Below, one piece after another: positions 7,412 through 23,688 of a stretch of DNA of 24,000 nt (positions are counted from its first letter, which is position 1; every line of letters starts with the position of its first letter). Source of the stretch: Kitasatospora aureofaciens (GTDB lineage Bacteria; Actinomycetota; Actinomycetes; Streptomycetales; Streptomycetaceae). The stretch covers positions 130,532-154,531 of the forward strand of contig JODU01000013.1 of assembly GCA_000720845.1 (NCBI GenBank), read 5' to 3'. The translations under genes were made by a program, and so were the position numbers. The notes below the pieces were generated by a model, which worked only from the letters and a program-made list of their open reading frames with translations, did no database searches and was not told the DNA's origin.

Positions 7412-8203
7412 ATGACCACGGACCACACCCGGCCTCCCCACATCGACACCGGCCGGGCCCACCCCGCGCGGGTCTACGACTGGCTGCTGGGCGGCAAGGA
7501 CAACTACCCGGCCGACGAGGCGGTGGGCGCGACCCTGCCGCCCGAGGCACGGGACGGGGCGCGGCAGAACCGCGCGTTCATGAACCGCGCGGTGGCGTAC
7601 CTCGCCGCGCGCGGCGTCGACCAGTTCCTGGACATCGGCACGGGCATCCCGACCGAGCCCAACCTGCACCAGATCGTCCAGCGGACGGTGCCGACCGCCC
7701 GGGTCGTCTACGCCGACAACGACCCGATCGTGCTGCGGCACGCGCAGGCCCTGCTGGCCGGCAGCCCCGAGGGGGCCACGGACTACATCCAGGCCGACGT
7801 CCGCGAGCCCGAGGACATCGTGCGCCACGCCCGCGGCATCCTTGACTTCGACCGGCCCATCGCGCTGTCGCTGATCGCGCTCATGCACTTCGTTCCGGAC
7901 GACCAGGACGCCCACGGGATCGTCCGGGGTCTGGTCGGGACCCTCCCCCGGGGCAGCCACCTGGTCCTGTCGCACGCCTCGATCGACCTCTTCCCCGAGC
8001 TGGCGGAGCAGGTGATCGCCCAGTACGCCAGGGGCGGCATCCGCCTCGGCTTCCGCACCCGGGCGGAGGTCGCCCGCTTCTTCGACGGTATGGAACCGGT
8101 GCCGCCCGGCCTGGTCACGGCCACCGAGTGGTACGGCGAGGGCCAGGAGCCGCCCGCGCCGGAGGAGAGCGGTGTCTACGCGGGCGTGGCGCGTATCCCC
8201 TGA
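7412..8203 (+). CDS. SAM-dependent methyltransferase of the actinobacterial Methyltransf_19 (DUF574) family, substrate unknown
   Basis: N-terminal IDTGRAHPARVYDWLLGGKDNYPADE, SAM-binding-like FLDIGTGIPTEPN, then VVYADNDPIV and ALMHFVPD. This matches my recollection of the family pattern. GGAG lies upstream of ATG 7412. Confidence 0.8.
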   Translation: MTTDHTRPPHIDTGRAHPARVYDWLLGGKDNYPADEAVGATLPPEARDGARQNRAFMNRAVAYLAARGVDQFLDIGTGIPTEPNLHQIVQRTVPTARVVYADNDPIVLRHAQALLAGSPEGATDYIQADVREPEDIVRHARGILDFDRPIALSLIALMHFVPDDQDAHGIVRGLVGTLPRGSHLVLSHASIDLFPELAEQVIAQYARGGIRLGFRTRAEVARFFDGMEPVPPGLVTATEWYGEGQEPPAPEESGVYAGVARIP

Positions 8204-8231: not shown

Positions 8232-8417
8232 TCAGCGGCGGCGCCCGCGCGTCGCCCAGCCGCTGCCGATCCCGGCGACGTGCAGGGCCAGCAGGGCGAG
8301 GCCGATGAGCATCACGTTGGTGGAGGTGAAGACGTCGTTGGTCGAGACCTCGGCCGCGTTGATCAGCCAGGCGATGAGGAACAGAACCGCCGCGATGATG
8401 GCGAGCACGGTGTACAT
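8232..8417 (-). CDS. Small (61 aa) two-TM membrane protein, hypothetical
   Basis: ATG at 8417 (minus strand) is preceded by GAAGGG. Sequence: MYTVLAIIAAVLFLIAWLINAAEVSTNDVFTSTNVMLIGLALLALHVAGIGSGWATRGRRR. All but one third-codon position are G/C. The bias drops in the upstream part of track ORF 8232..8639, which would also run through the iron box. Confidence 0.65.
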   Translation of the reverse strand: MYTVLAIIAAVLFLIAWLINAAEVSTNDVFTSTNVMLIGLALLALHVAGIGSGWATRGRRR

Positions 8418-8532
8418 CCCTTCGGATCGGCGGCACCGGAGCGGCGCCGTGTCTCGCGTATGCCCCCGACGGGCCGCCTGACACGACGGAGGGCGCGGCA
8501 ACGACGGGCAGCCCGCGGGCCCTCCACAGGCA

Positions 8533-8551
8533 TTAGGTAAGGCGAACCTAA
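8533..8551. promoter_or_regulatory. DtxR/IdeR/DmdR-type iron box (operator)
   Basis: TTAGGTAAGGCGAACCTAA matches the 19-bp consensus TTAGGTTAGGCTAACCTAA at 17/19 positions, and the outer hexamers TTAGGT/ACCTAA are perfectly palindromic. It lies in the divergent intergenic region next to the AT-rich -10-like GATAAT (8557..8562). Confidence 0.7.
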
Positions 8552-8567
8552 GATCAGATAATGTTTC

Positions 8568-9194
8568 GTGTGCAACAACCTCCGGAAGCAACCCGTCCGG
8601 TGGTTCCGCGAGCACACTTGGGAGCCGGCCTTGCCGCACACGACCGACACGACCGGAGACCGGCCGGAGACCGTCACCGAAGAGGGCTGGGTCGAACTCG
8701 GCTCACGGGAGGAGCTGCGCGAGCTGCTGGGCGAACCCTGGCCCGTCGTCGTCGACAAGGTGCACGACCGGCTCACGGACGAGGACCGGGACATCCTGGC
8801 CCGCTCCCCCTTCTGCCTCCTGGCGACCTGTGACGCGGGCGGCAACTGCGACGTGTCGCCGCGCGGCGACACCCCCGGCTTCACCCACGTCCTGGACTCC
8901 AGGACGCTCGCCCTGCCGGACCGCCCGGGCAACCGGCGCGGGGACAGCTTCCACAACATCCTCGACAATCCGCACGCCGGCCTGCTGTACCTGATCCCCG
9001 GCGGCAAGCAGGTGCTCCGGGTCAACGGCCGGGCCCGCGTCCTCACCGAGGCGCCGTTCTTCGACGCGATGACATGGGACGGAAGGCGTCCGGACCTGGC
9101 GCTGCTCCTGGAGATCGACGAGATCTACCTCCACTGCCCGATGTCCCTGAACCGGGCGGGACTGTGGAAACTCCAGTCCTGGCAGACGAGTTGA
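8568..9194 (+). CDS. Pyridoxamine-5'-phosphate-oxidase-like (split-barrel, PPOX/FDOR superfamily) flavoprotein of unknown function (MSMEG_1061-like)
   Basis: The core SPFCLLATCDAGGNCDVSPRGDTPGFTHVLDSRTLALPDRPGNRRGDSFHNILDNPHAGLLYLIPGGKQVLRVNGRARV...IDEIYLHCPMSLNRAGLW fits the PPOX-type family pattern. The start is uncertain. GTG 8568 is possibly leaderless, and G/C third-position bias already begins there. TTG 8631 is preceded by GGGAG. Confidence 0.75.
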   Translation: MCNNLRKQPVRWFREHTWEPALPHTTDTTGDRPETVTEEGWVELGSREELRELLGEPWPVVVDKVHDRLTDEDRDILARSPFCLLATCDAGGNCDVSPRGDTPGFTHVLDSRTLALPDRPGNRRGDSFHNILDNPHAGLLYLIPGGKQVLRVNGRARVLTEAPFFDAMTWDGRRPDLALLLEIDEIYLHCPMSLNRAGLWKLQSWQTS

Positions 9195-9272
9195 GCCGTG
9201 CGGGCCGCCGGGGGGCGACGGACGGGGCAGCGGCCGCCAAGTCCGTGTGCCCCCCGCCTCTACCAGCAGTTA

Positions 9273-9291
9273 TTAGGTTAGGCTAACCTTC
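9273..9291. promoter_or_regulatory. DtxR/IdeR/DmdR-type iron box (operator) of the siderophore ABC operon
   Basis: TTAGGTTAGGCTAACCTTC is identical to the consensus TTAGGTTAGGCTAACCTAA at the first 17 of 19 positions. It ends 5 nt before the GTG 9297 start of the ATPase gene and contains a TANNNT-type hexamer TAACCT (9284..9289). Confidence 0.8.
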
Positions 9292-9296
9292 ACTGC

Positions 9297-10160
9297 GTGA
9301 GAACTGGTGAAGACGCAGCCGGCACCCCGCGCCTGCGCGGTCATGAGCTGTCGGCAACGGGCGTGACCGTCGCGTACGACGGTGTCGATGTCGTGCACGA
9401 CGCCGCGGTCAGGCTCAGGCCCGGCGAAGTGACCGTCCTGGTGGGCCCCAACGGCAGTGGGAAGTCGACGCTGCTGCGGACCGTCGCCCGGCTGCAGCGG
9501 GCCCGCAGTGCCGTGCTCAGCCTGGACGGCAGCACCGACGGACTGGCGCTGACGTCCCGTGAGTTCTCCCGGTACGTCGCCCTGCTGACGCAGGGTCGTC
9601 CCACGCCCGGCGGGCTGACCGTGCGGGACGTCGTCGAGTTCGGCCGCTATCCGTACCGGGGCCGCTGGGGGCGGCCCGACCCGGACGGCCCGGCCGCCGT
9701 CGACCGGGCGCTCGCGCTCACCGGCGTCGACGGCCTCGCCGACCGCGGCGCCGACCACCTCTCCGGCGGGCAGTTGCAGCGGGTGTGGCTCGCGAGCTGC
9801 CTCGCCCAGGAGACCGGCGTACTGCTCCTGGACGAACCCACGACCTATCTAGACCTGCGCTACCAGGTCGAACTCCTCGACCTCATACGCGACTTGGCGG
9901 ACGACCACGGCATCGCCGTCGGTGTCGTCCTGCACGACCTCGACCAGGCGGCAGCCGTCGCCGACCGGATCACGCTCCTGGAAGCGGGCCGGATCGTCGC
10001 CGACGGCACGCCCGAGGAGGTGCTGACACCGGAGCGGCTGACCGCCGTCTACGGCATCCGGATCGACGTCGACACCGACCCCCTGACCGGCCGGCTGCGC
10101 ACCCGCCCGATCGGCCGCCATCACATACGAACCCCCGAAAGGCTCGGCACCACCTCATGA
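9297..10160 (+). CDS. Iron-siderophore-type ABC transporter ATP-binding protein (FepC/FecE/FhuC-like)
   Basis: Walker A GPNGSGKST, ABC signature LSGGQLQRV, Walker B LLLDEPT and H-loop VLHDL. The N-terminus LRGHELSATGVTVAYDG is typical of this subfamily. GTG 9297 is the only in-frame start upstream of it. Confidence 0.9.
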   Translation: MRTGEDAAGTPRLRGHELSATGVTVAYDGVDVVHDAAVRLRPGEVTVLVGPNGSGKSTLLRTVARLQRARSAVLSLDGSTDGLALTSREFSRYVALLTQGRPTPGGLTVRDVVEFGRYPYRGRWGRPDPDGPAAVDRALALTGVDGLADRGADHLSGGQLQRVWLASCLAQETGVLLLDEPTTYLDLRYQVELLDLIRDLADDHGIAVGVVLHDLDQAAAVADRITLLEAGRIVADGTPEEVLTPERLTAVYGIRIDVDTDPLTGRLRTRPIGRHHIRTPERLGTTS

Positions 10161-11140
10161 GACGCCTCCTGCTCACCGCGGCCGTCACCACCGCCGCGGC
10201 GCTCACCCTCGCCGCCTGCGGCACCACCGAACCCGCCGCCGACAAGACGGAGAAGAAGGCCTCCGAGGCGATCACGCTCAAGGACGGCAAGGGCACCGAG
10301 GTGAAGCTCGACGGACCGGCCACCAAGGTCGTCGCCACCGAGTGGAACGTCGTCGAGAGCCTCGTCTCGCTGGGGGTCGACCCGGTCGGCGTCGCGGACG
10401 TCAAGGGGTACAACACCTGGGACAGCGCCGTTCCCCTCAAGAACGAGCCCAAGGACATCGGCACCCGCGGCGAGCCCAGCATGGACACCGTCGCCTCCCT
10501 CGCCCCCGACCTCATCGTCGCCACCACGGACCTCACCCCGGCGGCCGTGAAGCAGCTGCGCGAGGTCGCCCCGGTGATCGAGGTGAAGTCCGCCGACGGC
10601 ACCGGTCAGATCGACCGGATGCTGGAGAACGTCGACCTCATCGCCAAGGCCACCGGCACCTCGGACCGGGCCAGGTCGCTGCGCGAGGGCTTCGAGGCCA
10701 AGGTCGCCGCGGGCAAGAAGGCCCTGGCCGGCGCAGGGATGGCGGGCAAGGACTTCGCCTTCGCCGACGGCTACGTCGCCTCCAACCAGGTCTCGATCCG
10801 CCCGTACACCGCGACCTCGCTCATCGGCGAGGTCAACGAGGCGATCGGTCTGAAGAACGCCTGGACGGTGAAGGGCGACGAGGCCTACGGTCTCGGCACC
10901 ACCGACGTCGAGGGTCTGACCAAGCTGCCGAAGGACACCCAGTTCGCCTACATCGGCAACGACGACGACCCGAGCGCCACCCCGTTCAGCGGTGAGCTGG
11001 CCAAGAACCCGGTGTGGAAGTCCCTGCCGTTCGTGAAGGCCGGCGACGTGCACCGGCTCGACGACGGCGTCTGGATGTTCGGTGGTCCCGGGTCGATGGA
11101 GGCGTACATCGACTCCGTCGTCGGCGCCCTGACGAAGTAG
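10157..11140 (+). CDS. Siderophore-binding lipoprotein (type-8 periplasmic binding protein, FhuD/FepB-like)
   Basis: ATG 10157 overlaps the ATPase stop (ATGA). Signal peptide MRRLLLTAAVTTAAALTLAACG has a canonical lipobox. Body motifs VVATEWNVVESLVSLGVDPVGVAD and LAPDLIVATTDL are typical of iron-complex receptors. Confidence 0.9.
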   Translation: MRRLLLTAAVTTAAALTLAACGTTEPAADKTEKKASEAITLKDGKGTEVKLDGPATKVVATEWNVVESLVSLGVDPVGVADVKGYNTWDSAVPLKNEPKDIGTRGEPSMDTVASLAPDLIVATTDLTPAAVKQLREVAPVIEVKSADGTGQIDRMLENVDLIAKATGTSDRARSLREGFEAKVAAGKKALAGAGMAGKDFAFADGYVASNQVSIRPYTATSLIGEVNEAIGLKNAWTVKGDEAYGLGTTDVEGLTKLPKDTQFAYIGNDDDPSATPFSGELAKNPVWKSLPFVKAGDVHRLDDGVWMFGGPGSMEAYIDSVVGALTK

Positions 11141-11147
11141 CGGGGCC

Positions 11148-13229
11148 ATGGCCGTCACCGCAACCGAACCAGCGACCGATCCGGCGGCCCCTGCGTCGAC
11201 GGTCCCCACGTCCCGGTCGGGCGCGGCCGCGGTGACGGCCGGAATCGTCCTGCTGGTCGCCGTGCTCGCCGTCGTCGACATCACCCAGGGCACCGCCGCC
11301 GTCGGACCGTCCGAGGTCCTCAAGGCCCTGACCGGGCAGGCCGATCCGGGCGACGCGTCCGTCGTCGTCGCCTCCCGGCTGCCCCGGATGACCGCGGGGC
11401 TCCTGGTCGGCGCCGTCCTCGGCATGGCCGGCGCCGTGCTCCAGGCGGTCAGCCGCAACGTGCTCGCCTCCCCCGACACCCTCGCGGTGAACGCCGGTTC
11501 CTACCTGGCGCTGGGGCTGGCCGGCGCCACCGGCGTCTCGCTGCCGATGCTCGCCTCCTCCGGCATCGCCTTCGCGGGCGGCCTGGCGGCGGCCGCGGTC
11601 GTGCTCGGGCTGTCCGGCCTCGGCACGGGCACCGTCCGGCTGGTGCTGGCCGGCACCGCGCTGATGCTGGGCCTGAACTCCATGACGGAGGGCCTGCTGC
11701 TGCTCTTCCCGGAGCAGACCGAGGGCCTCTACCAGTGGAACCAGGGCAGCATCGGCCAGAACGGCTTCGACGGCGTCCTGCAGATGCTGCCGATCGCCCT
11801 GATCGGACTGGCCGGCCTGATGCTGACGGCCCGTCGGGTGGACGCGCTGGCCCTCGGCGAGGACGCCGCGCGCGGCCTCGGCGTTCCGGTCCGGGCCACC
11901 CGGGTCACGGTCGTCGTGCTCGCGGCGCTGCTGTCCGCCGCGGCGGTCACGCTCGCCGGGCCCATCGGCTTCGTCGGCCTGTGCGCACCGGCCCTGGTGC
12001 GCCCGCTCGCCCGCCGGTTCCGCGGCTTCACCCGCTCCCGTACGGCGATGCCCGCGGCGGCGCTCACCGGCGCGGCCCTGGTGCTGGGCTCGGACGTACT
12101 GCTGCGGGCCCTGGTCGCGGACGCCCGTGCGGTGTCCGTGCCGACGGGTGTGGTCACCAGTCTGGTCGGCGCCGTGTTCCTGGTCGCGATGGCGCTGCGG
12201 GTGCGGGACACCGCCGGGGCCGGGGCCCCGGACCGGCTGCGGACCCCCGGCCGGGGAGTCTTCCTGGCCACGCTCGCCGTCCTGGCCGTGGTCCTGGTGG
12301 GGCTCGTGATCGCCGCCGTGCTGGTGGGCGACAGCAAGCTGCTGCTCGGTGACGTGGTCAACTGGCTTCAGGGACGGGCCGGGCGGACCGTCTCCTTCGT
12401 CCTGGACACCCGGGTGCCCCGGGTGCTCGCGGCGCTGTGCGCGGGCGCGGCGCTCGCCCTGGCCGGCACGCTCGTGCAGGCCGTCACCCGCAACCCGCTC
12501 GCCGAACCGAACGTCCTCGGCGTGACCGGCGGCGGCGCGCTGGGCGCGGTGATCCTGGTGACCACCGTGCCCGCCGCCGGGACCTGGGGCGTGGCGGGGG
12601 CCGCGTTCGCGGGGTCCGCCGTCACCGCCGTCCTCGTCTTCGGGCTCGCCGCCCGCGACGGTTTCCGGCAGAACCGGCTGGTCCTCGTCGGCATCGGCGT
12701 GGCCTCCGGGACGGCGGCGCTGATCAGCCTGCTGATCGTGCTCACCGACCCGTTCAACGCCAACAAGGCGCTGACCTGGCTGTCGGGTTCGACCTACGGG
12801 CGGACCATGCCGGACGTCGTGCCGGTCGCGCTGGCCCTGGTCGTCGGCATCGGCGTCGCCGTCGCCCGGCGCACCGAGCTGGACCTGATCTCGCTGGACG
12901 AGGACACGCCGCGGCTGCTCGGCCTGCGGCTGGCTCCCGGGCGCCTCGGCTTCCTGGTGCTGAGCGTCGTCCTCAGCGCGACGGCCGTGGCCTGCGCGGG
13001 CACCATCGGCTTCGTCGGGCTGGTCGCCCCGCACGCGGCACGCGCCCTGGTGGGCCGTCGGCACGTGCGGGTGGTGCCGGTCGCGATCCTCCTCGGCGCC
13101 ACGCTCGTGTGCGCCGCCGACCTGCTCGGCCGCACGGTCATCGCCCCGGCCCAGCTCGGCGCGGGGCTGATGACGGCGGTGATCGGGACGCCGTACTTCC
13201 TGTATCTGCTGGTACGGAGCCGTCGCTAG
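11148..13229 (+). CDS. Fused double FecCD-type permease (FhuB-like) of the iron-siderophore ABC importer
   Basis: 693 aa with two tandem homologous halves. Repeated motifs: RNVLASPDTLAVNAGSYLA / RNPLAEPNVLGVTGGGALG and GPIGFVGLCAPALVRPL / GTIGFVGLVAPHAARAL. Highly hydrophobic throughout. Confidence 0.9.
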   Translation: MAVTATEPATDPAAPASTVPTSRSGAAAVTAGIVLLVAVLAVVDITQGTAAVGPSEVLKALTGQADPGDASVVVASRLPRMTAGLLVGAVLGMAGAVLQAVSRNVLASPDTLAVNAGSYLALGLAGATGVSLPMLASSGIAFAGGLAAAAVVLGLSGLGTGTVRLVLAGTALMLGLNSMTEGLLLLFPEQTEGLYQWNQGSIGQNGFDGVLQMLPIALIGLAGLMLTARRVDALALGEDAARGLGVPVRATRVTVVVLAALLSAAAVTLAGPIGFVGLCAPALVRPLARRFRGFTRSRTAMPAAALTGAALVLGSDVLLRALVADARAVSVPTGVVTSLVGAVFLVAMALRVRDTAGAGAPDRLRTPGRGVFLATLAVLAVVLVGLVIAAVLVGDSKLLLGDVVNWLQGRAGRTVSFVLDTRVPRVLAALCAGAALALAGTLVQAVTRNPLAEPNVLGVTGGGALGAVILVTTVPAAGTWGVAGAAFAGSAVTAVLVFGLAARDGFRQNRLVLVGIGVASGTAALISLLIVLTDPFNANKALTWLSGSTYGRTMPDVVPVALALVVGIGVAVARRTELDLISLDEDTPRLLGLRLAPGRLGFLVLSVVLSATAVACAGTIGFVGLVAPHAARALVGRRHVRVVPVAILLGATLVCAADLLGRTVIAPAQLGAGLMTAVIGTPYFLYLLVRSRR

Positions 13230-13250: not shown

Positions 13251-13879
13251 GTGCCGGCGGGCCGGGTGCCCCCGTACGGTGCCGTCATGGACCGGCGCGC
13301 CGCGGACGGGGGCCACGCGGGCCTGCTGAACGTCATCGACCTCGAGGCCACGTGCTGGGACGGGCAGCCGCCGCCCGGCGAGGTGAGCGAGATCATCGAG
13401 ATCGGGCTCGCCGTGGTCGACCTCGACGCCGGGGAGCGGGTGGCCCGGCACCGGATCCTGGTGCGGCCCGCCCGCTCCCGCGTCAGCCCCTTCTGCACGG
13501 AGCTGACCGGCATCACCCGGGCCGAGACCGACCGGGGCGTGAGTCTCGCCCAGGCCTGCGACACGCTGGTGCGTGAACACGGCGCGGGCGTGCGGCCCTG
13601 GGCGAGCTGGGGCGACTACGACCGCAGGCAGTTGGTCCGCCAGTGCGCGGCCGACGGGGTGCCCTACCCCTTCGGCCGCCCGGCCGAGCGCGCGCACACC
13701 AACGCCAAGGCCGTCTTCGCCGAGGCCCACGGGCTGCGCCGACGCCCCGGCATGGCACGGGCGCTGGAGATCGCCCGCCCTTGGAGGGACGGCACCACCG
13801 GGGTGTGGACGACGCCTGGAACATCGCGGCGCTGGTGCTCCGGCTGGCCGACCGGGGCGACTGGCCCGGCTCTTGTTAG
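13251..13879 (+). pseudogene. DEDDh 3'-5' exonuclease (ERI-1/KapD-like), reading frame broken by a 1-nt frameshift near 13778-13780
   Basis: The N-terminal frame has Exo I NVIDLEATCW and runs to ...GMARALEIA (ending at 13775). The conserved C-terminus PLEGRHHRGVDDAWNIAALVLRLADRGDW (Exo III H-x4-D) is in the +2 frame (track ORF 13643..13879, stop 13877..13879). In the original frame the tail to 13955 loses G/C third-position bias (TTA, AAT, AGA codons). One extra C in the run 13778..13780 would restore a single ORF. Start is GTG 13251 (RBS GGGGGA) or ATG 13287. Confidence 0.65.
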
Positions 13880-14037
13880 ACGCGACGTCAAGTTACTGAA
13901 CCGTAATGAGTCAGGTGCTACCGCTGGTAACCCCTGCGCGGTTACGGTCCCGTAGCCCCCCAGGAGCAGCGCGACCACGGCCCTGACCCCAAGGGACCGC
14001 GGACGACCGGATCCGGCCCTTCCCCAGGAGGTTCGCC

Positions 14038-18590: not shown

Positions 18591-19643
18591 TCAGCCGGGG
18601 AACCGGCCGCGGGCGCGCAGGTGCCCTCGGCGTTCGGCGTAGGCGAGGTCGTCGCGCCACAGGCGGCCCGCTGCGGCGCGCATCAGCGGGCGCAGGGCCG
18701 GGGCCAGGCGGCGGGCCAGAGGAAAGCCGGGCCGGTCCGAGGTGGCGAGCACCGCTTCGACGACCGCGGTGCGGGGCCGGCCGTTCCCGTCCGGGCCGAG
18801 CGGGGTGGCGTGGCTCTCCACGACGGACCCCGTGCCCTCGCCCTCGGTGATGCGCATGACCACGGTGCGGGGTCCGGGCGCGGTGAACTCGGCCCGTACG
18901 GGGACGACCAGGCGCCCGGTCAGCCGGAAGGACACGTCCACGACGAACCGGTCGGCGGCCCCGTCTCCGCCGCCGTCCCCCGCACCGGTCCCGCCGGAGC
19001 GCGGGCTCGCTCCGGGCGCCTCGACGACGGTGAGGTCCACGAAGGAGTACGGGTGGAACCAGGCTCCGTGCCAGGGGTCGAGCCGGTTGGCGACGACGTC
19101 CTCGGGCTCGCAGGCCCCCACCCCGCGCCACACGGACGTCAAGGCCGTCGGCAGGGGCGGCCGGGCGGGCAGGAGAGGAGCCGGGGTCGGGGGCTCCTCC
19201 CCCACAGCGTCCAGCCGTACCCACACCAGTACGCCGTCGTCGTGGACCGGCAGCGGTTCCCAGCCCGCGAACGGGGCGCCGTCCAGGGCGAGTCCGTGCC
19301 AGCGGCACACGAGCGTGCCGCATCGCACGGGGCCGTCGGCCAGCGGGGCCCCGAGGTGGGGGCAGGCGCCGGGGCCGCCCACCAGCCGCCCTCGCGCGTC
19401 CCGCCAGACGACGGTCTCGACGCCGGCGACGGTGCCGGACAGCGGGCGCGTGGGGCGCACGTCCGTGCTCGCGCCGAGGACGTACCAGTTGCCCGAGGGG
19501 CGGGCCAGGGCGCGTTCGAGGGCGCCCGCGATGACGGCGGGGCGTGCCTCGCGCCAGGTCGGCCGCTGGTGCCGCCAGGGGACCGCGGGGCGCCGCAGCC
19601 GCAGGGGGAGGCGGCCGCGGCGCGGGCGGGGGCCGGTGCTCAT
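18591..19643 (-). CDS. Rieske [2Fe-2S] domain protein with an uncharacterised C-terminal domain (DUF5914-like), third gene of the crt operon
   Basis: ATG 19643 overlaps the crtB stop (ATGA). Rieske ligand motifs CPHLGAPL and CRWHG are spaced as in Rieske proteins. The C-terminal ~200 aa have no motif I can assign. The rest of track ORF 18591..20573 upstream of 19643 is crtB read in another frame. Confidence 0.8.
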
Positions 19644-20638
19644 CCGGGCTCCTTCGCGTCGAGGACGCCGCCGCAGGGCACCGGCGCGGACGTAGGGGCG
19701 CGACGGGCACCGAGCCGGGCGTGCAGGACACGTACCAGTCCGTCGGCCGCGACCGCCGCGCGGCGCCGGCGGGACACCACCGCGCGCCGGTGCAGCACCG
19801 CGTACCCGCCCTCCGCGACGGCGTCGAGGATGTGCCGGTAGAGCACGAACGCGGTACGGATGCAGGGCCGTGCGACGGGGTCGAGCATGGCGAGGCCGGG
19901 CTCGGCCTCGCGGTAGACGGCCCGGGTGAGGTCCTCTGCGGCCCGCAGCGCGGCCGTGATGCGCGGGTCGGGGCGGCCGGTGTGCCTGCTCCAGAGCAGC
20001 AGGTCTCGGTGGACGCCGTGCGCGGCCAGCAGGTCGGCGGGGAGGTAGATCCGGCCCCGGTCCAGGTCCTCGCCGACGTCCCGCAGGAAGTTGGTCAGCT
20101 GGAAGGCGACGCCCAGTGCGGCCGCGTGCGGGGCGGCCGGGGCGCGGTCGGTCACGGTGCCGAGGACGGGCAGCATCTGGAGGCCGATGACGGCGGCCGA
20201 ACCGTGCATGTAGGCGCGCAGGTCGGCGTAGGTGGCGTAGTCGGTGACCGTGAGGTCGGCGCGCATCGAGGCCATGAAGTCGGTGAAGTGCGCCGGTGGG
20301 ATGGCGTACCGGTCGGCGGTGTCGGCCAGCGCGAGCACCACGGGTTCGGCGGCCGGCCGTTGGCCGGTGAGCGCCCGCCGCAGCAGTGCGTCGAGGCGGG
20401 TGAGGGCGGCGGCGCGCTCGTGGGGCGTGGTGCCGGACCGGGTGTCGTCGACGATGTCGTCCGCCCGGCGTGCGAACCCGTACAGGGCGTGCACGGCCGG
20501 TCTGCGGTCGGCGGGCAGCAGGCGGGTGGCCAGGAAGTAGGTGCGTCCGTGCCGGGCGTTGAGGAGCCGGCACCGGGTGTAGGCGGCGCGCAGCTCAGGA
20601 TCGGTGATGCCGGCGGCGTCGAGCTCGCGCGTCGTCAT
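19640..20638 (-). CDS. crtB: Phytoene synthase
   Basis: 332 aa. Squalene/phytoene synthase Asp-rich motifs [13 protein letters not shown] and [21 protein letters not shown] 20638 overlaps the crtI stop (ATGA). Confidence 0.9.
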
Positions 20639-22152
20639 CGGTGCCCTCCCCCGGCCGCCGCGGGGCGGGCCCGCTTTCCGGTGATGCGGGCGGCGGCCAG
20701 TTTCCCGGAGACCAGTACGGTCGGTACGCCGACGCCCGGGGTGGTCCCGCAGCCCGCCAGGACGGCGTTGTCGGTGCCGCGCACCAGGTTGCGGGGGCGG
20801 AAGGGCCCGGTCTGCGCGAAGGTGTGGGCCACCGAGAACGGGGTGCCCGCGGCGTGCCCCTGTGCGGTCCAGTCGGCGGGGGTCACCAGGCACTCCTCCT
20901 CGACCGCGGCGGCGATGCCGGTCAGTCCCCGGTGTTCCAGGGTGGCGAGCAGGCGGTCGCGGTAGCGGGGCGCGAGGTCGCTCCAGGCGTGGGCGCCTGG
21001 GCCGATGTCGGTGTTGGGGCAGGGCGCGAGGACGTAGTGGAGGTGGCGGCCCTCGGGCGCGAGGGCGGGGTCGTGGGCGGTGGGGCGGGTGATCAGCAGG
21101 GACGGGTCGCTCATGAGGGTGCCGGTCCTGGTGAGTTCGTCGAAGGTGCCTCGCCACTCGGCGCCGAAGGAGAGCGTGTGGTGGGCGAGGTGCGGCCAGG
21201 TTCGGGTGGTGCCGGCGTGCAGGACGACGGCGGAGGGCGCGTGCCGCAGGGCGACGGGCCGGCGCGGGCGGCGGCCCAGCAGCCGGTGGGCCACGGGCAG
21301 GTCGGGGGTGAGGACGACGGCGTCGCAGGGGATGCGCTCGTGCTGGGTGACGACGGCGGTGACGCGGCTGCCGGACCGCTCGAGGCGGGTGACGTCGCGG
21401 CCGAGGCGCAGGTCGGCCCCGGCCGCGACGGCGGCGTCGGCCATGGCGCGGGGCAGGGCGTGCATGCCGCCGCGCGGGAAGTAGACGCCGGCGACGGTGT
21501 CCATGTAGGCGATGACGGCGTATGCGGCCAGCGCGCGGGCCGGCGCGACACCGGCGTACAGGGCCTGGAAGGAGAAGATCCGCTGGAGCCGTTCGTCCGT
21601 CAGGAACCCTCCGATGCGGCTCTCCAGGCGGCCGAAGCCGCCGAGGGCGGCGAGCCGGGCGAGGTCGGGGGTGAGCAGGCCGAGCGGCGAGTCGAAGTTG
21701 GCGTCGATGAACCGGCGCATCTGCACGGCGTACAGCCGCCCGAGCCAGTCGCGCAGCCGCCGGTACCCGGCCGCCTCCCGGGCTCCGGCGAACCGTTCGA
21801 CCTCCGCCTCCATCGCGTCGGCGTCGGTGTGCACGTCCAGGGTGGTGCCGTCGGCGAAGCACGCCCGGTAGGCGGGGTGCAGGGGCAGCAGGTCGACGCG
21901 GTCGCGCAGCCGTTCGCCGACGGCCGCGAAGGCCTCGTCGGCCAGGTCCGGCATGGTCAGCACGGTCGGTCCGGTGTCGAGGTGGTAGCCGCCGAGTTCA
22001 CGTCGGCCGGCCCGGCCGCCGGGCAGTGGTTCGCGTTCCACGACGGTCACCCGCCGCCCCGCGCCCAGCAGGTGCAAGGTGGCGGACAGCCCGGCGAGTC
22101 CGGCCCCGACGACCACGACGTGGTCGGTGCGGCCGGGCACCGTCCGCGTCAT
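20635..22152 (-). CDS. crtI: Phytoene desaturase (FAD-dependent, CrtI type)
   Basis: ATG 22152 has a GGAG RBS 6 nt upstream. N-terminal dinucleotide fold [39 protein letters not shown], then GPTVLTMP, and C-terminal [25 protein letters not shown] typical of CrtI. GTG 22218 is a less likely alternative start. Confidence 0.9.
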
Positions 22153-22449
22153 CGCGCGCTCCGGCCGGCGGGCGGTCCACCCGCCCGGTGAGTGCCGTCG
22201 TGGACCGTGCTGGGGCACATCGCGGGGTCCTCTCGTGGGGTCGGCGTCATGCCTTCCCCGCTCGCCTCGGGTGCGACGCCGCGGGGGCCGGTTCCCGTCC
22301 GGCAGTCACCCGCCCGGCGCAACCTCGGCCCCCGGCGGAGCTCCGCGCCCGCGGCGTCCAGCGCGCCGGGCGACCGCGGACGGCACCGGAGCGGAATACT
22401 CCGCCGAACGGGACCGAGCCGGCGGGCGGACCGAAGGGAAGGAGGCGGT

Positions 22450-23688
22450 GTGTTCGACGCGGATGTGCGGGAGGCGGGCGCGCTCGACGCGGACATCGTG
22501 GTCGTCGGCGCCGGGGCCGCGGGGCTCTCCCTGGTGCACCGGCTGCCGTCCGGGGCACCGCACGGTGCGGTGCCCTCCGTGGTCCTGATCGATCCGCCGC
22601 CCGGCCCGCTGCGCCCTCCTCGGCGCACCTGGTGCTACTGGGAGACCGGGGCCGGACGCTTCGACCGGGCGACGACGGCGTCGTGGGAGTGGCTGCGGGT
22701 GCGCGGCCGGGACGGGGCGGTCGTCCGGCGGCACATCGCGCCCGCCCGCTACAAGATGATCCGCTCGGACGACTTCGAGGCGCTGGTGGAGCGGGACCTG
22801 AAGGACCGGCCGGGGCTGCGGCGCCTGTCGGCCACCGTCGGCACGGTGACCGGCCTGCCGGACGGCACCGCGGGGGTGGCGGCCACGGACGCCACCGGCG
22901 CCCGGGTCCGCCTGAGCGCCCGCTGGGTCTTCGACTCACGCCCGCCGGAGCGACTGCCGGCCGCCCGTACCCGCCTGCTCCAGCACTTCCGCGGCTGGTT
23001 CGTCCGCACCGAGCGGCCGGTCTTCGAGCCGGAGGTGGTCGACCTGATGGACTTCCGCACGGCGCAGCCGGCGCGGGGTCTGTCCTTCGGCTACGTGCTG
23101 CCCACCGGACGGCACACCGCGCTGGTCGAGTACACCGGGTTCGGCCCGGCGCCCCTGACATCCGACGCGTACGACGACGCGCTGGAGGACTACACGCGCC
23201 GCGTCCTCGGCACCGGCGCCGTGGAGGTCCTGTCGACCGAGCAGGGGGTGATCCCGATGACCGACGCCGACTTCGGGCGGCGGGCCGAGGACGGCGACGG
23301 CGACCGCGTCTTCCGGATCGGCGTCGCGGGCGGGGCGACCCGGGCGTCCACCGGCTACACGTTCGCCGCCGTGCAGCGGCAGTCCGAGGCCGTGGCCCGT
23401 GCGGTGCGCGCGGGCCGCCGGCCGGTGCCGCCGCCCCCGTATCCGGCGCGGGCCCGGCTGATGGACGCGGTGCTGCTGCGTGCGTTGGACACCGGCCGGG
23501 TCGACGGCCCCGACCTCTTCTTCCGGCTGTTCGACCGCGTACCCGCCGCGCGGCTGCTGCGCTTCCTGGACGGCCGGTCGGGCCCGTGCGAGGACCTCGC
23601 GGTCGGCGTGCGCGTCCCCGTCCTGCCGATGCTGCGCACGGCGGCCGAACTGCCGTGGCTGCGGCGCCGCCGCCTCCCCCTCCGCTGA
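22450..23688 (+). CDS. crtY: Lycopene beta-cyclase (CrtY/CrtL family)
   Basis: GTG 22450 is preceded by a strong RBS GAAGGGAAGGAGG. FAD fold DIVVVGAGAAGLSLVHRL. Family motifs LLQHFRGWFVRTE, FGYVLPTGRHTALVEYT, GVIPMT and GVAGGATRASTGYTF. The upstream part of track ORF 22192..23688 has no support. Confidence 0.85.
   Translation: MFDADVREAGALDADIVVVGAGAAGLSLVHRLPSGAPHGAVPSVVLIDPPPGPLRPPRRTWCYWETGAGRFDRATTASWEWLRVRGRDGAVVRRHIAPARYKMIRSDDFEALVERDLKDRPGLRRLSATVGTVTGLPDGTAGVAATDATGARVRLSARWVFDSRPPERLPAARTRLLQHFRGWFVRTERPVFEPEVVDLMDFRTAQPARGLSFGYVLPTGRHTALVEYTGFGPAPLTSDAYDDALEDYTRRVLGTGAVEVLSTEQGVIPMTDADFGRRAEDGDGDRVFRIGVAGGATRASTGYTFAAVQRQSEAVARAVRAGRRPVPPPPYPARARLMDAVLLRALDTGRVDGPDLFFRLFDRVPAARLLRFLDGRSGPCEDLAVGVRVPVLPMLRTAAELPWLRRRRLPLR

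Follow-up and report, generated by a model that had tools for sequence, protein, structure and literature searches.

The stretch of DNA analysed here, a window of 24,000 nucleotides from Kitasatospora aureofaciens (contig JODU01000013.1, positions 130,532 to 154,531 of the forward strand), carries a near-consensus iron box in front of a gene for a 187-residue split-barrel protein of the PPOX type, which is followed by an iron-boxed operon for a ferric-siderophore ATP-binding cassette (ABC) importer, cdtABC. The features that bear on this arrangement, with positions counted from the first letter of the window, are:

8533-8551, no strand assigned: iron box of the PPOX promoter (a DmdR1/IdeR operator by sequence), 17/19 to consensus, 27.4 bits, conserved
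8559-8564, plus strand: predicted -10 hexamer TAATGT (TAnnnT type), GATAATGT or close variants in the alignment
8568-8575, plus strand: conserved GTGTGCAA block, with GTGCAAC 4-10 nt past the -10 in the alignment
8582-8600, plus strand: variable hairpin CCGGA...TCCGG of the 5' untranslated region, CCGGAAG...CTTCCGG in many loci, lost by deletion from others
8620-8624, plus strand: ribosome-binding site GGGAG, 6 nt before the start codon, conserved in nearly all aligned loci
8631-9194, plus strand: gene for the PPOX-type split-barrel protein, 187 aa, TTG start; PF01243 at 67 bits, TIGR04025 at 201.5 bits
9273-9291, no strand assigned: second iron box, before cdtA, 30.9 bits; its reverse complement is the published SCO7400 site
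9297-10160, plus strand: cdtA, ATPase of the ferric-siderophore ABC importer; PF00005, best NCBIfam matches FecE, FepC and FhuC
10157-11140, plus strand: cdtB, siderophore-binding lipoprotein; Peripla_BP_2, best NCBIfam match FhuD, lipobox LAAC
11148-13229, plus strand: cdtC, fused double FecCD permease of the FhuB type; PF01032 twice, NF007867 at 978.9 bits against a cut-off of 849
13251-13955, plus strand: RNase T-family exonuclease gene, the SCO7397 equivalent; PF00929, position as SCO7397

The first of the two boxes, TTAGGTAAGGCGAACCTAA, has two mismatches to the DtxR/IdeR/DmdR1 consensus TTAGGTTAGGCTAACCTAA, a 19-bp palindrome, and had been reported with exact sequence and coordinates in a preliminary description of this DNA. 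Only two sites in the window, 8533-8551 and one other, lie within three mismatches of the consensus, against 0.00 expected by chance as estimated from 100 dinucleotide shuffles. For the matrix scan that had been proposed as a check, 24 DmdR1 sites of S. coelicolor (Table S2 of PMC12161575) served to build a position weight matrix, without those of SCO0799 and SCO7400 so as to avoid circularity; the box scored 27.4 bits, compared with 13.6-33.3 bits for the S. coelicolor sites and with top scores in shuffled windows of 8.7 (mean) and 19.0 bits (maximum). It lies, as had also been described, in an AT-rich patch, the G+C fraction being 0.30-0.50 across 8527-8566 and 0.70-0.85 on either side. A weaker matrix match, TAAGGCGAACCTAAGATCA (15.3 bits, 8538-8556), overlaps the box at an offset of 5 nt; overlapping box pairs of a like kind are listed for SCO2271/SCO2272, and this second match may merely mirror the internal repeat of the motif.

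The proposed search for the box upstream of orthologues was made in 80 Streptomyces species encoding an orthologue at 70-90% identity, with loci totalling ~960 kb, and it bears the operator out. A box of at least 20 bits stands at the same place in 55/80 loci, with nine more at 13.6-20 bits; it is absent in 16, one of these not being assessable. Across the ~960 kb, matches of at least 20 bits occur at two places only, upstream of the PPOX gene or of cdtA. In 70 of the 80 species, cdtABC directly follows the PPOX gene, and the cdtA box reaches at least 20 bits in all 70 cdtA-linked loci, at -23 to -25 of the cdtA start. Judged by its sequence, its position and its conservation upstream of orthologues, 8533-8551 is a bona fide operator of the DmdR1/IdeR type.

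Loss of the box has taken two forms, clean deletion with retention of the -10 (L002, L005, which is S. tendae JCM 4610, and L008) and decay by point mutation (L007, L010). Where the PPOX gene has been relocated, the box is decayed in three loci (L035, L058, L062), and in a further locus, L017, the gene stands alone among unrelated genes with a box that still scores 27.4 bits. The S. coelicolor copy (P0433, which recurs across hundreds of sequencing runs) is part of the gene order SPL-PPOX-cdtABC-exonuclease, SPL being a spore-photoproduct-lyase-like gene, and has no box before the PPOX gene and a canonical one before cdtA; deletion of the box in this species accounts for the PPOX gene being missing from the published DmdR1 regulon. 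It also provides natural strains with and without the operator for comparison. The SPL-like gene (PF20903, ~390 aa) lies between a small membrane open reading frame (ORF) and the PPOX gene in most relatives (at 3661-4839 in L081 and 4806-5978 in L091) and is missing in the window (8418-8532) and in L014, L016 and L019; in relatives that have it and lack the iron box, its stop codon falls ~15-20 nt before the PPOX -10.

A MAFFT alignment of the window with 39 orthologous upstream regions gives a fixed order of iron box, 7-nt spacer, GATAATGT or TAnnnT variants, GTGCAAC, variable hairpin, GGGAG and TTG, and the order box-TAATGT-GTGCAAC-GGGAG-TTG is common to species whose intergenic sequence has otherwise diverged. 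The hexamer block, GATAATGT or close variants, is kept in nearly all 39 regions, including those of box-less species, and an E. coli-type promoter scan returned no promoter-like site. The preliminary description had named GATAAT (8557-8562) as the -10-like element; its position is exact, but the predicted -10 that is conserved is the overlapping TAATGT at 8559-8564. From the conserved blocks, we infer that transcription starts at ~8570-8572, which would place the box at about -38 to -20, where a bound repressor would block RNA polymerase.

The GTG at 8568, which likewise lies exactly where it had been placed, had been taken as the start of the gene. We reject it in favour of TTG 8631, which on comparison of the orthologues is the true start codon: the TTG (GTG in L042) and the GGGAG before it are conserved, most orthologues are annotated at 187 aa, and the protein alignments start at MPHT. 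The distances from box to start codon, moreover, vary among loci by non-multiples of three, and some loci lack whole segments, which marks 8568-8630 as an untranslated leader. The translation of the longer, 208-aa ORF is 100% identical to an S. tendae protein, which points to an S. tendae-like genome as the source of the window. The leader (8568-8640) folds no better than shuffled sequences (z = -1.0), and an Rfam search of it gave no match at E ≤ 1. Within 8568-8619, two blocks, GTGTGC at the leader's 5' end and GCACAC immediately ahead of the ribosome-binding site, are complementary to each other and show fair conservation across orthologues, but the fold energy given above is not significant.

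Downstream, the gene order of the window matches that of cdtABC-SCO7397 (SCO7400-7397) in S. coelicolor, where cdtABC (SCO7400-7398) is a known siderophore importer with SCO7397 behind it (PMC12161575); the published site that matches the reverse complement of the second box is given for SCO7400 as GAAGGTTAGCCTAACCTAA in Table S2 of that paper. A TAnnnT hexamer, TAACCT (9285-9290), lies inside the cdtA box, with the GTG start codon of cdtA (9297) 6 nt further on, which suggests a leaderless cdtA transcript whose -10 would lie inside the operator. The exonuclease gene (RNase T/DEDD) is probably the last gene of the cdt operon; it starts 21 nt after cdtC, as does SCO7397, and it is kept in many loci and missing in others. 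The preliminary description had drawn attention to an importer without a siderophore reductase gene in the window, and indeed none of the window ORFs that we scanned proved to be a reductase of the SIP or FhuF type; as an argument this is weak, since the Streptomyces SIP reductases DesF, SCO0459 and SCO1623 are encoded elsewhere (PMC12161575).

The 187-aa protein has PF01243 as its sole Pfam match and TIGR04025, the MSMEG_1061 family of FMN (flavin mononucleotide)-dependent PPOX-type flavoproteins, as its only NCBIfam match (201.5 bits against a cut-off of 170), in keeping with the earlier assignment to split-barrel PPOX-like proteins without assigned function. The TIGR04025 match covers profile positions 1-159 of 197; a C-terminal tail of ~35 aa with a conserved terminal LY is present in distant members and absent in all Streptomyces cdt-linked orthologues, so that on sequence grounds the window protein belongs to a tail-less subfamily. 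With 4576 representative clusters at E ≤ 1e-3, this is a large family, and we found nothing relevant to its function in the literature searched. Nor did sequence or profile searches of the PDB find a solved structure, the closest entry being 2htd (E = 2e-5). It is common in Bacillales, which to our knowledge lack F420; occurrence in such organisms fits FMN and argues against F420. FMN is the most likely cofactor, with the reservation that the family name itself derives from bioinformatics. No NCBIfam model of an F420 family matched at E ≤ 0.01, the likeness to Rv2074 and Rv1155 being at the level of the fold; the PdxH equivalog was absent from the NCBIfam matches, and there was no second Pfam domain. 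A His-Cys pair (H168-C169) is nearly invariant family-wide and reads HCP in Streptomyces.

The AlphaFold model is a split barrel, with a mean predicted local distance difference test (pLDDT) score of 71.5 and core blocks mostly at 77-94. In a Foldseek search of the PDB, the best matches were to HupZ (5esc and 7kpz; E ~1e-8, template-modelling score normalised to the target 0.76-0.81), and others included the COG3576 protein 2htd, the Desulfovibrio FMN-binding protein, Rv2074 at ranks 24-26 and HutZ at rank 42. The comparison with HugZ-type structures that had been proposed returns the shared split-barrel fold, and on this model the resemblance to HupZ, Rv2074 and HutZ is one of fold only. The family also occurs as tandem two-domain proteins (P0124, P0125 and other proteins of 340-378 aa), which fits a dimeric split-barrel unit, and fused to GNAT acetyltransferase, DJ-1/PfpI or cupin domains (P0157, P0184, P0172, P0201) in Paenibacillus, Planctomycetota and metagenomes.

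The tie of the protein to siderophore import does not depend on the cdt operon. In five loci (L057, L064, L076, L078 and L093), the PPOX gene is divergent from a FecCD-FecCD-ATPase-binding-protein operon that NCBIfam models match best as FepC, FecE, FecB and FepB rather than as heme systems. In the first four of these loci, the PPOX box reaches 27-29.5 bits; in L093 the sites on the PPOX side are at ~16 bits, and a box of 28.9 bits precedes the binding-protein gene. L093 and L094 represent an orthologue group, 69% identical, with the same divergent importer setting.

The two functions are also joined in single polypeptides. In 18 protein clusters (448-515 aa), a complete FecE/FepC-type ATPase is followed by a TIGR04025 domain at the C terminus, the named sources being Actinomycetospora (five species), Prauserella, Pseudonocardia, Tamaricihabitans and Williamsia. 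Their ATPase portions share 61-66% identity with the ATPase encoded in the Fep-like operon of Streptomyces, or 57% in the case of Prauserella flavalba, whose protein is truncated. In the PPOX portion, identity with the window protein is 39-45%; the family motifs GNRR and HC are retained there, as is SPRG in all fusions but one. A second kind of fusion, seen in Kineosporia (P0213) and in P0255, joins a pair of TIGR04025 domains to FAD_binding_6, NAD_binding_1 and [2Fe-2S] ferredoxin domains, an architecture that puts the TIGR04025 domain at the accepting end of a redox chain. The link to siderophore-iron use put forward in the preliminary description is therefore stronger than could be seen from the window, as there are two adjoining importers and, in other genera, fusions to the ATPase.

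These observations are best explained by a protein that is induced on iron starvation, repressed by DmdR1 and acts as a redox accessory of ferric-siderophore ABC importers by reducing ferric siderophores, a reading to which we would give an even chance. Under such a scheme, the Fe(II)-loaded DtxR-family repressor DmdR1/IdeR would bind 8533-8551 over the -35 side of the promoter, so that the PPOX gene would be transcribed only when iron is scarce. Its product would be a redox protein of the cytoplasm with a split-barrel fold and, in all likelihood, FMN as cofactor, and would most likely serve as an accessory of type II ferric-siderophore ABC importers, i.e. CdtABC here and the Fep-like importer in other species; imported Fe(III)-siderophore would be reduced at the cytoplasmic face of the pump with release of Fe(II). 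Of the earlier proposal of an iron-repressed flavoprotein that releases iron, the operator and the siderophore link stand and the branch concerned with heme is not supported, for the reasons given below; the ferric-reductase activity is what we infer from the associations of the protein.

Several points weigh against this scheme. The 187-aa protein has no domain that binds reduced nicotinamide adenine dinucleotide (phosphate), NAD(P)H, and an electron donor has to be postulated; the structural model is only moderately confident; and C-terminal domains of importer ATPases are often regulatory rather than catalytic. The box has been decayed or deleted in ~15/80 species, among them S. coelicolor and the type strain of S. 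tendae, implying that iron control of the PPOX gene is dispensable in some lineages. Distant family members (in Brevibacillus, Halobacillus and a metagenome bin; Firmicutes and other phyla) have no iron-related neighbours, which would confine the iron role to the actinomycete branch.

Other explanations share parts of this evidence. A heme-binding or heme-degrading protein of the HupZ/HutZ/HugZ type, which would free iron from heme and which the preliminary description had entertained, could draw on the Foldseek ranking, with Streptococcus HupZ at the top and HutZ and the biliverdin reductase Rv2074 further down, on the nearly invariant His-Cys pair, and on the frequent encoding of HugZ homologues beside FecCD transporters (PMC11602992). 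However, the single domain of the window protein comes without DUF2470/DRI (no PF10615 match), neither phmmer nor the family profile retrieved a heme-degrading PDB chain at E ≤ 1, and FMN-binding proteins and F420 enzymes are nearly as good in the fold search, which leaves only a generic fold in common. Both adjoining importers, moreover, are of the FhuD/FecB/FepB type, not HmuT or IsdE, and S. coelicolor already has an iron-boxed hmuO and a DUF2470-type candidate, SCO0799. The heme degradation by HupZ has itself reportedly been attributed to its His tag, and we consider a heme role for the window protein unlikely. The fusions could alternatively denote a non-catalytic accessory that senses a ligand and throttles uptake as cytoplasmic flavin, an iron complex or heme builds up, since the PPOX domain is fused at the ATPase C terminus, where MetN, ModC and MalK, like other importer ATPases, bear regulatory domains. 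The split-barrel superfamily, too, includes non-enzymatic heme sensors (PMC11602992). Yet the fusions to an NAD(P)H-FAD (flavin adenine dinucleotide)-[2Fe-2S] module argue for a redox end-point, and a throttle that is induced only in iron starvation is a less obvious design; a role of this kind seems to us rather improbable.

We hold in about the same low regard the proposal that the protein is a general iron-starvation flavoprotein, such as an iron-sparing electron carrier or an oxidative-stress enzyme, which adjoins importers through shared regulation only. One of the close matches by fold is an electron-transfer protein, the FMN-binding protein of Desulfovibrio, and both the distant family members without an iron context and the boxed but solitary gene of L017 fit such a role; adjacency to two unrelated importers and fusion to the ATPase in five named genera are, however, hard to explain by co-regulation alone. 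PPOX/FDOR-type enzymes are also known to inactivate several antibiotics, and the protein might act on the imported ligand rather than on the metal, either by inactivating sideromycins reductively or in recycling or degrading hydroxamate siderophores. Salmycin enters through CdtABC and its uptake is stopped by cdtABC disruption (PMC13061897), but there is no specific evidence for such modification, and the Fep/Fec-like linkage and the wide distribution of the fusions better fit general iron release; we rate this explanation as quite unlikely. Least probable, and in our judgement very doubtful, is that the box serves mainly as a second iron-controlled promoter for cdtABC by read-through, with the PPOX gene as an unrelated passenger. 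No terminator-like site was found in the PPOX-cdtA spacer (9194-9297), the sole one detected lying outside it, and the cdtA box is the stricter of the two (70/70); against this, a strong box and promoter of its own precede cdtA in every locus, the PPOX box is kept where no cdt operon follows (L017, L076, L078), and the fusions show a functional tie of the protein to importers.

The iron-boxed S. coelicolor gene SCO0799, described as 'HugZ-like' (PMC12161575), was also considered as an orthologue of the PPOX gene; as far as it is testable, this is rejected, the S. coelicolor copy (P0433) being the one upstream of cdtABC. None of 37 metagenome loci with the exact SCO0799 box encodes a TIGR04025 relative (0/37), and one of them has, 22 nt downstream of the box, a DUF2470 protein with no similarity to the window protein (E = 1.1); SCO0799 appears to be a different protein, of the DUF2470 type. 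The exact 19-mer, TTAGGTAAGGCTCACCTAA, is found in 37 high-GC metagenome contigs (L096-L132), and the five groups of downstream ORFs that were scanned against Pfam gave an FTR1 iron permease, a ZIP transporter, DUF2470 and a weak match to an Fe2+-transport protein (below the Pfam cut-off). These contigs give a glimpse, on a small scale, of the iron regulons of uncultured actinomycetes.

Around the locus, the window holds the following further genes, those of carotenoid type (18591-23688) lying ~5 kb past the cdt locus:

7412-8203: Methyltransf_19 gene
8232-8417, minus strand: membrane ORF of 61 aa
18083-18574: pyrimidine-dimer DNA glycosylase
18591-20573, minus strand: Rieske and DUF5914 protein
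20635-22218, minus strand: flavin amine-oxidase/desaturase
22192-23688, plus strand: lycopene cyclase

The operator type and the cdtA box are already known, whereas the box of the PPOX gene, the repeated linkage of the family to importers and the ATPase fusions were not found in the searchable literature. In Streptomyces, the release of iron from ferrioxamines, coelichelin and foreign siderophores once they have been imported is understood only in part, and some strains are without the DesF reductase altogether (PMC13061897). An iron-boxed flavoprotein that travels with two importers, and that elsewhere is fused to their type of ATPase, is a concrete candidate for the iron-release step that is cheap to test; if the assignment is right, a family of thousands of proteins that lacks a solved structure would gain its first known function.

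Among known systems, the iron boxes of the Streptomyces siderophore genes desA (SCO2782) and cdtA (SCO7400) have been published (Flores & Martin 2004; PMC12161575), and, like the PPOX box, are 19-bp palindromes with the same consensus; they overlap promoter elements of an iron-acquisition gene, as the PPOX box is predicted to do. The predicted PPOX operator differs in that it fronts a gene outside the published S. coelicolor regulon. The HugZ/ChuZ/HutZ/HupZ proteins share the superfamily fold, are iron-regulated in bacteria and are often encoded beside FecCD transporters (PMC11602992), whereas the window protein is without DUF2470/DRI, has no detected sequence relationship to them and has siderophore-type neighbours. 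A precedent for a small split-barrel flavoprotein that reduces Fe(III) chelates is found in the Flavin_Reduct family (PF01613), the enzymes of which, however, draw directly on NAD(P)H and have no tie to siderophore importers; PF01243 is the only Pfam match of the window protein.

In function, the closest counterparts would be the SIP reductases (DesF, which is SCO2781, ViuB, YqjH, FscN and BauF) and FhuF, which have the role proposed here for the PPOX protein, i.e. cytoplasmic, iron-repressed release of iron by proteins encoded beside importer genes. They are not homologous to the window protein, in which neither FAD_binding_9/SIP domains nor the C-terminal [2Fe-2S] motif of FhuF was found. 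We tentatively suggest, as a possibility that we place somewhat below an even chance, that the tail-less actinomycete branch of TIGR04025 is a third class of cytoplasmic ferric-siderophore reductase, structurally unrelated to SIP and FhuF, which would dock on the ATPase of type II iron-siderophore ABC importers, or in several genera be joined to it covalently, and would reduce the complex and release its iron as it leaves the pump. The siderophore ABC transporter IrtAB of mycobacteria, which has an FAD domain, provides a parallel: its siderophore-interaction domain is a flavin reductase module on an iron-regulated siderophore transporter, and the ATPase-PPOX fusions follow the same logic. The IrtA domain, however, has an FAD-binding SIP/FNR-like fold and lies at the N terminus of a transporter with an exporter fold, whereas the PPOX module is a predicted split barrel that is either free-standing or C-terminal on the ATPase of a type II importer.

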